Numbered from the stretch's first letter, positions 17,884 to 23,614 are shown. The stretch: DNA of 64,000 nt from Escherichia coli (GCF_024298765.1 NZ_CP101210.1); one strand, 5' to 3'. Translations and numbers: made by a program. The notes: generated from the sequence alone by a model not told the origin.

Positions 17884-18510
17884 ATGACCCCGGTTGATCG
17901 TCCACTATTAAATATTGGCTTAACGCGATTAGAATTCTTGCGTATATCAGGAAAAGGCCTTGCTGGTTTAACAATTGCCCCTGCTTTACTGTCACTTTTG
18001 GGTTGCAAACAGGAAGATATTGATAGCGGCACAGTAGGGTTGATAAATACACCCAAAGGGGTGCTGGTGACCCAACGTGCGCGATGCACGGGTTGCCACC
18101 GCTGTGAAATCTCTTGTACCAACTTGAACGATGGCTCAGTAGGGACATTCTTCTCCCGTATCAAAATCCATCGCAATTATTTCTTTGGCGACAACGGGGT
18201 TGGCTCTGGCGGTGGCCTGTATGGCGATCTCAACTATACCGCGGATACCTGCCGTCAATGCAAAGAGCCGCAATGCATGAACGTCTGCCCGATTGGTGCG
18301 ATTACCTGGCAGCAGAAAGAAGGCTGTATTACCGTCGATCATAAACGTTGTATTGGCTGTAGCGCCTGTACTACGGCATGCCCGTGGATGATGGCCACCG
18401 TAAATACCGAAAGTAAAAAATCCTCGAAATGTGTGTTATGCGGTGAATGCGCAAACGCCTGCCCAACAGGGGCGTTAAAAATTATCGAGTGGAAAGATAT
18501 TACTGTGTGA
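17884..18510 (+). CDS. ydhY: Ferredoxin-like 4Fe-4S cluster protein
   Basis: 208-aa ORF with multiple CxxCxxCxxxCP motifs, recognised as YdhY. Confidence 0.9.
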   Translation: MTPVDRPLLNIGLTRLEFLRISGKGLAGLTIAPALLSLLGCKQEDIDSGTVGLINTPKGVLVTQRARCTGCHRCEISCTNLNDGSVGTFFSRIKIHRNYFFGDNGVGSGGGLYGDLNYTADTCRQCKEPQCMNVCPIGAITWQQKEGCITVDHKRCIGCSACTTACPWMMATVNTESKKSSKCVLCGECANACPTGALKIIEWKDITV

Positions 18511-18530
18511 ATCTTGCAAAGGAAAAAATC

Positions 18531-20633
18531 ATGGCTAACGGTTGGACAGGTAATATATTAAGAGTCAATCTCACGACAGGAAATATTACCCTCGAAGATT
18601 CCAGTAAGTTTAAAAGTTTTGTCGGTGGCATGGGCTTCGGCTACAAAATTATGTATGACGAAGTACCGCCAGGCACGAAACCTTTCGATGAAGCGAATAA
18701 ATTAGTCTTTGCTACCGGCCCATTAACTGGATCTGGTGCCCCCTGTAGTTCTCGCGTAAATATCACCTCACTTTCTACTTTTACCAAAGGAAATTTAGTC
18801 GTCGATGCCCATATGGGGGGCTTTTTTGCAGCGCAAATGAAATTCGCTGGATACGACGTCATTATTATCGAAGGGAAAGCGAAATCACCGGTATGGCTGA
18901 ATATTAAAGATGACAAAGTTAGCCTGGAAAAAGCCGATTTATTATGGGGAAAAGGGACGCGCGCAACGACGGAAGAGATTTGTCGATTGACCAGCCCTGA
19001 AACCTGTGTGGCGGCTATTGGTCAGGCTGGGGAAAACCTTGTTCCTCTCTCTGGCATGTTGAATAGCCGTAACCACAGCGGCGGTGCGGGAACTGGCGCA
19101 ATAATGGGTTCGAAAAACCTGAAAGCGATTGCGGTTGAAGGGACGAAAGGGGTCAACATTGCCGATCGTCAGGAGATGAAGCGTCTCAACGATTACATGA
19201 TGACTGAACTTATCGGTGCGAATAACAACCATGTCGTGCCAAGTACGCCGCAATCGTGGGCAGAGTATTCAGATCCCAAGTCACGTTGGACAGCACGTAA
19301 AGGGCTGTTTTGGGGCGCGGCTGAAGGTGGTCCGATTGAAACGGGGGAAATTCCGCCAGGCAATCAGAACACGGTCGGCTTTCGTACCTATAAATCCGTT
19401 TTTGACTTAGGTCCGGCGGCAGAGAAATACACAGTAAAAATGAGTGGCTGCCACTCTTGCCCGATCCGTTGTATGACCCAAATGAATATTCCTCGGGTGA
19501 AAGAGTTTGGCGTGCCCAGCACAGGTGGTAACACTTGTGTAGCAAACTTTGTCCATACCACCATCTTCCCGAACGGGCCGAAAGATTTTGAAGATAAAGA
19601 CGATGGTCGTGTGATTGGTAACCTGGTTGGTCTGAATTTGTTCGATGACTACGGCCTATGGTGTAACTACGGGCAGTTGCATCGCGACTTTACTTATTGT
19701 TACAGCAAAGGTGTGTTCAAGCGTGTTCTGCCTGCTGAAGAGTATGCGGAAATTCGCTGGGATCAACTGGAAGCGGGTGACGTTAACTTTATTAAAGATT
19801 TTTACTACCGTCTGGCGCATCGCGTGGGTGAGTTGAGTCACCTGGCTGATGGTTCATATGCCATCGCAGAACGCTGGAATTTGGGTGAAGAGTACTGGGG
19901 CTACGCGAAAAATAAACTCTGGTCGCCGTTTGGCTATCCGGTTCACCATGCCAATGAAGCGTCAGCGCAAGTCGGTTCCATTGTTAACTGTATGTTCAAC
20001 CGTGACTGCATGACGCATACCCATATCAATTTTATTGGTTCCGGCTTGCCATTGAAACTGCAACGTGAAGTGGCGAAAGAACTTTTTGGTTCTGAAGATG
20101 CTTACGATGAAACCAAAAACTACACGCCAATCAATGACGCAAAAATTAAATATGCTAAGTGGTCGCTGTTGCGGGTCTGTTTGCATAACGCCGTCACCCT
20201 GTGCAACTGGGTCTGGCCAATGACCGTTTCGCCGCTGAAAAGCCGTAATTATCGGGGCGATCTGGCGCTTGAAGCCAAATTCTTCAAAGCGATCACTGGC
20301 GAAGATATGACTCAGGAAAAATTAGATTTAGCTGCAGAGCGTATCTTTACGTTGCATCGCGCCTACACGGTAAAACTGATGCAAACTAAAGATATGCGTA
20401 ATGAACACGATCTTATCTGTTCCTGGGTATTCGACAAGGATCCGCAGATCCCGGTCTTTACTGAAGGTACAGACAAAATGGACCGTGACGATATGCATGC
20501 TTCGCTCACGATGTTCTACAAAGAAATGGGCTGGGACCCACAGCTTGGTTGTCCGACCCGCAAAACATTGCAGCGTCTGGGGCTGGAAGATATTGCCGCC
20601 GATCTGGCAGCACACAATCTACTGCCTGCGTAA
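18531..20633 (+). CDS. ydhV: Aldehyde:ferredoxin oxidoreductase-family (pterin cofactor) oxidoreductase, 700 aa
   Basis: ORF 18447-20633 trimmed to MANGWTGNILRVNL...; recognised as YdhV. Confidence 0.9.
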   Translation: MANGWTGNILRVNLTTGNITLEDSSKFKSFVGGMGFGYKIMYDEVPPGTKPFDEANKLVFATGPLTGSGAPCSSRVNITSLSTFTKGNLVVDAHMGGFFAAQMKFAGYDVIIIEGKAKSPVWLNIKDDKVSLEKADLLWGKGTRATTEEICRLTSPETCVAAIGQAGENLVPLSGMLNSRNHSGGAGTGAIMGSKNLKAIAVEGTKGVNIADRQEMKRLNDYMMTELIGANNNHVVPSTPQSWAEYSDPKSRWTARKGLFWGAAEGGPIETGEIPPGNQNTVGFRTYKSVFDLGPAAEKYTVKMSGCHSCPIRCMTQMNIPRVKEFGVPSTGGNTCVANFVHTTIFPNGPKDFEDKDDGRVIGNLVGLNLFDDYGLWCNYGQLHRDFTYCYSKGVFKRVLPAEEYAEIRWDQLEAGDVNFIKDFYYRLAHRVGELSHLADGSYAIAERWNLGEEYWGYAKNKLWSPFGYPVHHANEASAQVGSIVNCMFNRDCMTHTHINFIGSGLPLKLQREVAKELFGSEDAYDETKNYTPINDAKIKYAKWSLLRVCLHNAVTLCNWVWPMTVSPLKSRNYRGDLALEAKFFKAITGEDMTQEKLDLAAERIFTLHRAYTVKLMQTKDMRNEHDLICSWVFDKDPQIPVFTEGTDKMDRDDMHASLTMFYKEMGWDPQLGCPTRKTLQRLGLEDIAADLAAHNLLPA

Positions 20634-20636
20634 GGA

Positions 20637-22016: not shown

Positions 22017-22798
22017 ACCCGTCGCAACATGCTGAACAGTTTCAGAGCCAGTTGGCGAACTATGTGCCACTGTTCACTCCCCAATTTTGGCCGGTGTGGT
22101 TGATCATTGCCGGACTATTGCTGGTAGGGATGTGGTTGGTGCTGGGGCTGCATGCCTTGCTTCGTGCTCGTGGCGTGAAGAAATCAGCCAACGACCATGG
22201 TGAGAAGGTTTATCTTTACAGCAAAGCGGTCAGATTATGGCACTGGTCGAATGCGTTACTCTTTGTATTGTTGCTGGCAAGTGGGCTGATAAATCACTTT
22301 GCGCTGGTGGGCGCAACTACGGTTAAAAGTCTGGTTGCGGTGCATGAAGTTTGCGGATTTTTGTTACTGGCATGCTGGCTCGGCTTTGTTCTGATCAATG
22401 CCGTTGGGGGTAATGGTCACCACTATCGCATTCGTCGTCAGGGGTGGCTGGAGCGAGCGGCAAAACAAACGCGATTCTATTTGTTTGGCATTATGCAGGG
22501 GGAAGAACATCCTTTCCCGGCAACAACCCAGTCTAAATTTAATCCCTTACAGCAGGTTGCCTATGTTGGTGTCATGTATGGATTGCTGCCGTTGTTACTA
22601 TTGACGGGGCTGCTGTGTCTCTATCCGCAAGCCGTGGGAGATGTGTTTCCTGGCGTAAGATACTGGTTATTGCAGGCGCATTTTGCTCTGGCATTTATAA
22701 GCCTCTTTTTTATCTTCGGTCATCTTTATCTTTGCACCACGGGGCGTACGCCACACGAAACCTTTAAAAGCATGGTCGATGGCTATCACCGGCACTAA
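22013..22798 (+). CDS. ydhU: Membrane cytochrome b-type subunit (PhsC/NrfD-like)
   Basis: 261-aa hydrophobic ORF recognised as YdhU; overlaps ydhX stop. Confidence 0.88.
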   Translation: MNPSQHAEQFQSQLANYVPLFTPQFWPVWLIIAGLLLVGMWLVLGLHALLRARGVKKSANDHGEKVYLYSKAVRLWHWSNALLFVLLLASGLINHFALVGATTVKSLVAVHEVCGFLLLACWLGFVLINAVGGNGHHYRIRRQGWLERAAKQTRFYLFGIMQGEEHPFPATTQSKFNPLQQVAYVGVMYGLLPLLLLTGLLCLYPQAVGDVFPGVRYWLLQAHFALAFISLFFIFGHLYLCTTGRTPHETFKSMVDGYHRH

Positions 22799-22801
22799 CG
22801 A

Positions 22802-23614
22802 ATGATCATTACACGAGCAGACCTGCGAGAATGGCGTATCGGAGCGGTGATGTATCGCTGGTTTCTGCGCCATTTCCCACGCGGCGGTAGTTATGCCGAT
22901 ATTCATCATGCACTGATTGAGGAAGGATATACGGACTGGGCGGAGAGTCTGGTTGAGTATGCGTGGAAAAAATGGCTGGCGGATGAAAACTTCGCGCATC
23001 AGGAAGTTTCTTCTATGCAAAAACTGGCCACAGATCCCGGAGAGAGAGCATTTTGCAGTCAGTTTGCCCGCAGCGACGATCATGCTCGCATCGGCTGTTG
23101 TGAGGATAATGCCAGAATCGCAACCGCTGGGTATGCCGCGCAAATTGCCAGTATGGGTTATAGCGTGCGGATTGGAAGTGTCGGCTTTAACAGTCACATT
23201 GGCAGCTCCGGTGAACGCGCACGGGTTGCTGTAACCGGTAATTCTTCGCGGATAAGCAGCGCTGGAGATAGCAGTCGGATTGCGAATACCGGAATGCGAG
23301 TACGCGTTTGTACATTGGGTGAACGATGTCATGTCGCCAGTAATGGTGACCTGGTGCAAATCGCCAGCTTTGGCGCAAACGCCAGAATTGCCAACAGCGG
23401 CGACAATGTACACATCATTGCCAGCGGTGAAGATTCAACAATAGTGAGCACGGGCGTGGTCGACTCAATTATTCTCGGGCCAGGGGGAAGCGCCGCACTG
23501 GCATATCATGACGGCGAAAGAGTTCGCTTCGCCGTCGCCATTGAAGGTGAAAACAATATTCGAGCCGGAGTCCGCTATCGCCTTAATGAACAGCATCAGT
23601 TTGTTGAGTGCTGA
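22802..23614 (+). CDS. ydhT: Uncharacterised protein YdhT with internal degenerate repeats
   Basis: 270-aa ORF; last gene of the ydhYVWXUT cluster. Confidence 0.85.
   Translation: MIITRADLREWRIGAVMYRWFLRHFPRGGSYADIHHALIEEGYTDWAESLVEYAWKKWLADENFAHQEVSSMQKLATDPGERAFCSQFARSDDHARIGCCEDNARIATAGYAAQIASMGYSVRIGSVGFNSHIGSSGERARVAVTGNSSRISSAGDSSRIANTGMRVRVCTLGERCHVASNGDLVQIASFGANARIANSGDNVHIIASGEDSTIVSTGVVDSIILGPGGSAALAYHDGERVRFAVAIEGENNIRAGVRYRLNEQHQFVEC

Follow-up and report, generated by a model that had tools for sequence, protein, structure and literature searches.

The operon ydhYVWXUT lies at positions 17884–23614 of the 64,000-nucleotide stretch of Escherichia coli DNA studied here (NZ_CP101210.1), the whole of which is referred to as the window. 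Our analysis leads us to propose, with about even confidence, that its products form an enzyme that sits in the membrane and is coupled to the quinone pool, with a catalytic part that faces the periplasm and acts as the terminal reductase of a small periplasmic compound other than an aldehyde. An initial annotation, made from the sequence alone, had named the operon correctly, as judged by the RefSeq annotation of an identical chromosome, and had described six co-directional, tightly packed or overlapping genes, a layout that the open reading frame (ORF) listing and RefSeq reproduce. It had also suggested an anaerobic membrane-associated redox complex, which the subunit types and an FNR box support, and had noted that no physiological substrate is established, in agreement with the literature to mid-2026. 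The operon and every element of that reading were already known; the annotation restates a known gap and does not, by itself, make the substrate question more tractable. The modest additions of the present analysis are a conserved Y-V-W core, a difference in the YdhY export signal between Enterobacterales and other lineages, and fold models of YdhW and YdhT. The six genes, placed by ORF listing and by RefSeq annotation of a chromosome 100% identical in this region, are as follows.

17884–18510, + strand: ydhY, putative poly-ferredoxin
18531–20633, + strand: ydhV, putative catalytic subunit, with a homology-supported start
20646–21284, + strand: ydhW as annotated by the Prokaryotic Genome Annotation Pipeline (PGAP; 212 aa); the K-12 annotation starts at the ATG at 20637 (215 aa)
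21348–22016, + strand: ydhX, predicted Fe-S protein
22013–22798, + strand: ydhU (phsC in RefSeq), presumed cytochrome b
22802–23614, + strand: ydhT, predicted accessory protein

The initial annotation listed an aldehyde:ferredoxin oxidoreductase (AOR)-family pterin enzyme, and YdhV fits this description. A Pfam search finds AFOR_N (PF02730, 2.6e-67) and AFOR_C (PF01314, 1.6e-47), and the protein matches the PDB sequences of AOR, FOR, WOR5, and BamB. The cysteines expected to ligate a [4Fe-4S] cluster, C307, C310, C314, and C558 (a CxxCxxxC motif plus a distal Cys), are invariant in 21 homologues with identities down to 30%, and the first three align to C288, C291, and C295 of AOR. Judged by these domains and ligands, YdhV is a member of the AOR/WOR family. 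A further cysteine, C336, is invariant among the 8 closest homologues. The HMMER alignment of YdhV to AOR stops after the cluster motif and does not cover the region that follows, where PSTGGNTC336 presumably takes the place of a Glu-containing motif of AOR. A 2025 review describes Cys336 as a BamB-like metal ligand and the AOR second-shell residues, meaning those of the Glu313/His448 type in P. furiosus AOR, as absent (PMC12096430); aldehyde-oxidizing AORs sensu stricto have no protein ligand to the metal. Whether YdhV uses Mo or W, which the initial annotation had left for metal analysis, has already been measured: the protein prefers molybdenum–bis-molybdopterin (Mo-bis-MPT), according to later papers that report the work of Reschke (2019). 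As to the proposed aldehyde screening, the clade-41 homologue CsWOR41L from C. somerae showed no activity with 46 aldehydes (PMC13328260), and the literature gives no substrate for YdhV itself. Because of this screen, the BamB-like Cys ligand, and the missing second-shell residues, the label “aldehyde oxidoreductase” is probably misleading for YdhV. The RefSeq names “aldehyde ferredoxin oxidoreductase” (18531–20633) and “thiosulfate reductase cytochrome B subunit” (22013–22798) are family-level labels.

YdhX and YdhU are the candidates for the connection to the membrane. YdhX has a Fer4_11 domain, four Cys cluster motifs, and the twin-arginine translocation (Tat) motif SFTRRKFV, which bears out the Tat-signal Fe-S protein of the initial annotation, and YdhY carries an N-terminal export-type signal as well. 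The best NCBIfam match of YdhX is NrfC, at 250.5 bits (below the cut-off of 377.6), followed by DsrO and TtrB. A published list of predicted Tat substrates includes YdhX with the signal MSFTRRKFVLGMGTVIFFTGSASSLLA (PMC7549933). On the strength of this motif, YdhX is predicted to be a Tat-exported Fe-S protein resembling NrfC, PhsB, and DsrO. YdhU contains the Pfam domain Ni_hydr_CYTB and about five hydrophobic segments, and its His positions were noted, in line with the cytochrome-b-like anchor that had been described. It also passes the NCBIfam PhsC model (PRK15006, NF011582) with 455.7 bits against a cut-off of 204. YdhU is presumed to be a membrane cytochrome b of the PhsC/FdnI/HyaC family that forms the interface with the quinone pool.

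YdhY accounts for the ferredoxin-like protein of the initial annotation, with Fer4 domains, 16 Cys residues in four cluster motifs, and an additional Cys41 in its signal. It appears to be a WorS-type poly-ferredoxin with an N-terminal Tat-like lipoprotein signal, TRLEFLR...LLGC41 (residues 1–41, window positions 17884–18010). YdhV, whose alignment to AOR begins at residue 4, lacks a signal peptide and must therefore travel with a partner. The signals were compared across a survey of one genome per species, in which a profile from an 8-sequence YdhV alignment identified 79 loci; a 21-sequence alignment was too diverse for this search and was replaced. The canonical twin arginine (RR) occurs in 53 of 56 non-enterobacterial YdhY orthologues, for example as TRREFLKxSGK, with a lipobox-like motif after it in 18 of the 53. 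The three orthologues without RR are on truncated or frameshifted contigs. Neighboring genes were counted in the 46 clade-41 loci with enough flanking DNA, which cover Bacillota, Spirochaetota, Coriobacteriia, Desulfobacterota, Chloroflexota, and Shewanella. In phyla other than that of E. coli, the Pfam-confirmed neighbors are TatC (12 loci), TatA (4), FdhD (11), MoeA-like MoCF_biosynth (10), and XdhC (4). The RR signals, the TatC and TatA genes beside the cluster, and the Tat signal of YdhX are the basis for our proposal that the enzyme of this clade is oriented toward the periplasm.

Regulation provides a separate line of evidence. The following features were located in the promoter region.

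17618–17634, + strand: Fur-box-like sequence AAATGATAATAAATATC, upstream of the FNR site and conserved in the Escherichia/Citrobacter alignment
17669–17682, + strand: FNR box TTGATAACGATCAA, a perfect TTGAT-N4-ATCAA, supported by motif scan, conservation, and the FNR chromatin immunoprecipitation sequencing (ChIP-seq) literature
17705–17710, + strand: candidate −10 hexamer CATTAT, placed by combining the published position of −42.5 with the box center at 17675.5
17718–17883, + strand: putative 5′ leader of ~166 nt, which follows from the probable transcript start
17720–17735, + strand: inverted heptamer pair TAACCAT-AA-AGGATTA (7-2-7), NarL/NarP-like and conserved in Citrobacter

The FNR box is the sole match to TTGAT-N4-ATCAA in the window. 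Shuffling gives a chance expectation of 0.13 per window, with at least one match in 13 of 100 shuffles, and the window-wide count taken alone is weak evidence. Position and conservation are stronger evidence. The box sits in the 455-bp intergenic region upstream of ydhY, its perfect half-sites are kept in the Escherichia and Citrobacter alignment at −215 to −234 from the ydhY ATG, and K-12 has the identical box at −214. The initial annotation had placed a perfect FNR box at this site, and the scan and the alignment confirm it. An FNR footprint at ydhYVWXUT is reportedly described by Partridge et al. in 2008, whom the FNR ChIP-seq study cites for it. Direct activation by FNR through a class II site at −42.5 is documented by ChIP-seq and expression data (PMC3688515), so the reporter fusion that had been suggested is in essence already published. 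After coordinate conversion, the ChIP peak of that study lies ~20 bp from the K-12 box. With the FNR site at −42.5 and the box centered at 17675.5, the ydhY transcript probably starts near 17718, and the block CACATTAT around the candidate −10 hexamer is conserved in the Escherichia/Citrobacter alignment. A generic sigma-70 scan found no site at the FNR-dependent ydhY promoter and fewer sites than in shuffles; a miss of the CATTAT promoter is expected because it is activator-dependent.

Other papers describe regulation of ydhYVWXUT by NarL/NarP, sigma-S, and Fur. A Fur ChIP-seq peak is reported in the ydhY promoter region (PMC7157518), and we infer that it corresponds to exactly the bases of AAATGATAATAAATATC. 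Repression by NarL/NarP is attested only by the title of Partridge 2008 and by papers that cite it. The heptamer pair at 17720–17735, just downstream of the probable start, is a candidate NarL/NarP site, and the exact NarL heptamer TACYYMT does not occur in the ydhY promoter region, its window-wide count being equal to chance. The sites at 17618–17634 and 17720–17735, which flank the promoter, would be consistent with the published control by Fur and NarL/NarP.

These observations allow us to outline how the proposed terminal reductase may work. The model takes gene content and domains from the window and cofactor type and FNR binding from the literature; to these we add, by inference, the order of the subunits, their topology, the direction of electron flow, and the roles of YdhW and YdhT. 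YdhV would hold a [4Fe-4S] cluster and Mo-bis-MPT with Cys336 as ligand and would be paired with the poly-ferredoxin YdhY. Electrons could pass along a wire that joins the YdhV cluster and the four clusters of YdhY to the four clusters of YdhX and then to heme b of YdhU in the membrane, where YdhU would exchange electrons with menaquinol or demethylmenaquinol. YdhW would most likely be a cytoplasmic escort or assembly factor of the YdhY–YdhV pair, and YdhT may be an enterobacterial accessory tied to YdhX. Transcription from the class II FNR promoter would be switched on without oxygen, lowered by nitrate or nitrite via NarL/NarP, bound by Fur, and favored by sigma-S. PhsB/NrfC-like and PhsC-like modules serve quinol-oxidizing reductases, and activation by FNR with repression by nitrate is the pattern known for dms, frd, and ynf; for dms and ynf, the literature lists regulation by FNR. 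The ydh promoter resembles those of dmsABC, ynfEFGH, and frdABCD in having a class II-type FNR site near −41.5/−42.5 and nitrate repression, but differs from them in its long leader (~166 nt) and in the additional Fur and sigma-S inputs. The reductase direction is favored because of this regulatory pattern, the Cys-ligated metal, and the negative aldehyde screens.

Several observations weigh against this proposal. We know of no substrate that has ever been found for the ydhYVWXUT enzyme. Purified YdhV is inactive, and no substrate was found for it, which the authors attribute to loss of the [4Fe-4S] cluster; in one study, expression of the operon in MG1655 was below the RNA detection limit, whereas CFT073 is a strain that expresses it well. 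The second arginine of the YdhY signal is gone in all nine enterobacterial N-termini examined, from six genera, and export of YdhY–YdhV in E. coli is therefore not assured; an unprocessed YdhY N-terminus has also been detected by N-terminomics in one of the two 2026 papers cited below for the signal. The operon of Edwardsiella tarda lacks YdhU; at least one lineage can therefore do without the cytochrome b. With regard to direction, the YdhU family also serves quinone-reducing dehydrogenases (FdnI, HyaC), and hydrogenase-2 is likewise nitrate-repressed, so neither regulation nor family kinship fixes the direction. AOR-family chemistry, moreover, usually lies far below the potential of the quinone pool, which favors substrate oxidation.

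These last points are the foundation of the strongest alternative, in which the enzyme runs in reverse as a periplasmic dehydrogenase that oxidizes a low-potential compound (for example an aldehyde, sulfonate, or aromatic compound) and passes the electrons to quinone via YdhY, YdhX, and YdhU. We regard it as somewhat unlikely but as a serious rival, because the YdhU family serves quinone-reducing dehydrogenases and because low potentials are usual in AOR-family chemistry. Among the members of YdhU's Pfam family are the cytochromes b of formate dehydrogenase-N and hydrogenases, which reduce quinone, and the characterized AOR/WOR members mostly carry out oxidations at very low potential. The literature links gut WORs to aldehyde detoxification. 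Against this alternative stand the inactivity of the clade-41 homologue with 46 aldehydes and, within the clade, the BamB-like Cys ligand and the missing AOR second-shell residues. Repression by nitrate and nitrite is also commoner for low-ranking terminal reductases.

A second alternative concerns topology rather than direction. In Enterobacterales, YdhY–YdhV may no longer be exported and may reside on the cytoplasmic face, with periplasmic YdhX and membrane-embedded YdhU forming a transmembrane electron conduit. Five enterobacterial genera have TRLEFLR, TRLDFLR, or SRLEFLR as the motif, and Edwardsiella has TRQAFLR (read at survey loci L003–L007, L015, L065, and L082), so that RL or RQ stands in 9 of 9 N-termini where RR is found elsewhere. 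The genomes with an RL/RQ YdhY are exactly those with an RR-bearing YdhX, and the loss of the arginine thus coincides with the gain of YdhX. YdhY is also missing from the published E. coli Tat substrate list that contains YdhX (PMC7549933), and the unprocessed N-terminus points in the same direction. However, the remainder of the enterobacterial signal (T-R-x-x-F-L-R, h-region, and lipobox Cys41) equals the mature protein in conservation across the six genera, which is hard to explain if the signal is dead. SignalP 6.0 assigns E. coli YdhY to TATLIPO (Tat/SPII) with >99% probability (PMC13245402, PMC13101318). A piggy-back on YdhX is possible instead, and we consider cytoplasmic retention with a YdhX–YdhU conduit improbable. 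In Enterobacterales, the pair may use its own weakened signal, travel with YdhX, or stay in the cytoplasm.

The coincidence between arginine loss and YdhX gain suggests a broader scenario, which we offer tentatively and with more doubt than belief. In Enterobacterales, an ancestral Tat-lipoprotein route may have been rewired: WorS lost its second arginine when the RR-bearing YdhX and YdhT were gained, so that the 77-kDa catalytic subunit would be exported by a three-protein piggy-back on YdhX or kept inside, and YdhW would represent a new type of signal-peptide/apo-enzyme escort. Neither the rewiring of export nor an escort role of YdhW is stated in the literature that we found. This topology question could explain the inactivity of the purified preparations.

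The survey also bears on YdhW. A YdhY orthologue adjoins YdhV in 45 of the 46 loci, and a YdhW relative with 25–45% identity lies within 4 kb of YdhV in 43 of them; Y-V-W is the conserved core across phyla. The initial annotation had counted two proteins of unknown function, which correspond to YdhW and YdhT. Both indeed have no match in the Pfam copy searched and fall only into their own NCBIfam families (newer Pfam entries, YdhW_C and YdhT_N, appear in the protein database), but YdhW turns out to be the third member of this core. Its structure model predicts two tandem winged-helix domains. The protein is very acidic on inspection of its sequence, and no Cys is conserved among the 45 sequences aligned for its family; these two properties argue for binding of protein rather than of DNA or metal. 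The proposed role of YdhW as an escort builds on its acidity, its lack of conserved Cys, its presence in 43 of 46 loci, and its predicted winged-helix protein-interaction fold. Compared with the TorD/DmsD/NarJ, NapD, and FdhE families, YdhW gives no Pfam or NCBIfam match. It may work like a redox enzyme maturation protein, and we do not claim membership in these families.

YdhX and YdhT, by contrast with the core, are confined to Enterobacterales (Escherichia, Citrobacter, Budvicia, Brenneria, Proteus, and Edwardsiella). The structure model of YdhT (predicted local distance difference test score 91) shows a five-helix N-terminal domain followed by a β-solenoid, and a fold search returned generic β-helix neighbors only. 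YdhT is predicted to be a cytoplasmic protein with a helical domain and a β-solenoid. A YdhU-like cytochrome b stands directly between Y and V in a few Syntrophaceae/Nitrospiraceae (Desulfobacterota/Nitrospirota) loci. In Edwardsiella tarda, the operon (locus L082, 3690–8954) has the order Y-V-W-X-T without ydhU and is convergent to a complete napFDAGHBC, with 144 bp between the end of napC and ydhT; a protein other than YdhU may serve as the membrane partner in that species. Clustering of the neighboring genes yielded export and cofactor-maturation genes, and among the clusters there was no transporter or pathway enzyme that recurs and would point to a substrate. An acetyl/propionyl-CoA-synthetase-like (AMP-binding) gene was considered as a substrate link and set aside as too weak, being found at five loci (L053, L064, L018, L033, and L058) at distances of 1–7 kb and in varying orientation.

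The RefSeq label phsC for ydhU suggests a third alternative, namely an enzyme that reduces sulfur compounds in the manner of thiosulfate, polysulfide, or tetrathionate reductases. The ydh proteins do resemble the quinol-oxidizing modules of PhsABC, Psr, Ttr, and NrfCD in combining a four-cluster Fe-S subunit with a quinol-interacting membrane subunit under an anaerobic respiratory logic. Besides the PhsC score of YdhU and the resemblance of YdhX to NrfC, DsrO, and TtrB, KEGG-based analyses place ydhU in sulfur metabolism, and FdhD-type sulfurtransferase genes lie beside the cluster in 11 loci. Partridge and colleagues are also said to have described sulfur-source phenotypes in 2008. However, PhsABC has a bis-molybdopterin guanine dinucleotide-type catalytic subunit, and the operon encodes no such PhsA/PsrA/TtrA-type subunit; its catalytic subunit is of the AOR family with bis-MPT, accompanied by the additional poly-ferredoxin YdhY and two accessory proteins. 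The PhsC label denotes a family of membrane anchors and not a substrate, and FdhD would act on the cofactor rather than on the substrate. Assignment of ydhYVWXUT to Phs was rejected, since YdhU passes the PhsC model but none of the six proteins contains a Molybdopterin or Molydop_binding domain. We consider reduction of a sulfur compound unlikely.

The remaining possibility, a cryptic or decaying relic without current function in E. coli, could draw on a literature without phenotype or activity, on very low expression in MG1655 in one data set, and on the degenerate Tat motif of YdhY, but it is highly improbable and appears close to refuted by purifying selection: all six reading frames are intact, dN/dS against a divergent Escherichia is 0.016–0.10 for all six genes, 5396 of 5426 complete E. 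coli genomes contain no less than 80% of the region, and the regulatory sites are conserved. Judged by its reading frames and the selection on them, ydhYVWXUT is a functional operon.

Our view of the proposed reductase can be set against two groups of relatives. A classification of June 2026 assigns YdhV to clade 41 of Class V, a class for none of whose enzymes it gives an established activity or role (PMC13328260). In that scheme (EcYdh and CsWOR41), ydhYVWXUT is the E. coli type member of the Class V WORs, membrane-associated and composed of WorL (YdhV), WorS (YdhY), and a W protein. The window agrees with this placement: ydhY, as WorS, ends 20 nt upstream of ydhV, and additional subunits of the membrane or respiratory type are present in the YdhU cytochrome b and the NrfC-like Fe-S protein YdhX. 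Class V WORs elsewhere have TatA/TatC, FdhD, and MoeA-like maturation genes nearby, and the C. somerae homologue belongs to an operon of three genes, L-S-W, with tatAE/tatC, fdhD, and moeA as neighbors (PMC13328260). The enterobacterial members differ in having YdhX, YdhT, and mostly YdhU, in preferring Mo over W, and in a WorS signal without the second arginine. BamB shares with YdhV the fold family, a protein Cys ligand to the metal, and the absence of AOR second-shell residues (PMC12096430). BamB differs in its cytoplasmic location, its CoA-thioester substrate, and its membership in a bifurcating complex; the connection of YdhV to a Tat-type ferredoxin and a cytochrome b makes a CoA ester an unlikely substrate for it.

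To our knowledge, E. coli encodes no AOR/WOR-family enzyme besides YdhV. YdhV is described as the first enzyme shown to bind the Mo-bis-MPT cofactor. A search of the literature of 2021–2026 for a newly assigned YdhV or ydh function found none. Among the WOR clades of a human gut catalogue, clade 41 ranks first in abundance, at ~72% of gut WORs, a figure that its authors describe as biased (PMC13328260). Identification of a substrate would reveal a further respiratory or detoxifying capacity in E. coli and in many gut anaerobes.

Returning to the locus, the spacings between the six genes are, in order, 20, 12 (or 3), 63, −4, and 3 nt. The alternative value reflects the ambiguous start of ydhW, with the K-12 ATG 9 nt before the PGAP start used for the identical strain. 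The mechanical ORF of ydhV begins at 18447, upstream of the annotated and homology-supported start at 18531. On the identical record, RefSeq gives the order fumD, ydhY, ydhV, ydhW, ydhX, phsC (= ydhU), ydhT, and the convergent ydhS. Several complete E. coli chromosomes match the region 17400–23700 at 100% identity. The allele of this region reaches at least 99% identity in only 75 of 5426 matching complete-genome records, the other 5351 being at 95–99%, and the window therefore represents a minority lineage in this region, where K-12 is ~98% identical. Relative to K-12, the six genes have 97.7–98.5% DNA identity and 3–9 amino-acid changes each, with unchanged lengths.

A riboswitch or other leader RNA was considered for the ydhY leader and rejected: no Rfam family matched in a scan of 17400–23700, and the predicted fold does not stand out in stability from shuffled sequences (z = −1.4). 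At the other end of the operon, the ydhT stop codon (23612–23614) lies 5 bp from that of the convergent ydhS (23620–23622), which leaves no space for an intergenic terminator; the closest + strand terminator-like hairpin after ydhT is within ydhS, at 23820–23837. Upstream, the neighboring gene is fumD (ydhZ, fumarase D), in the region 17219–17461, with a strong terminator hairpin at 17433–17461. Farther upstream, the small gene ynhH lies on the minus strand just upstream of pykF, with a mechanical ORF at 16670–16882 and an annotated coding sequence at 16670–16864.

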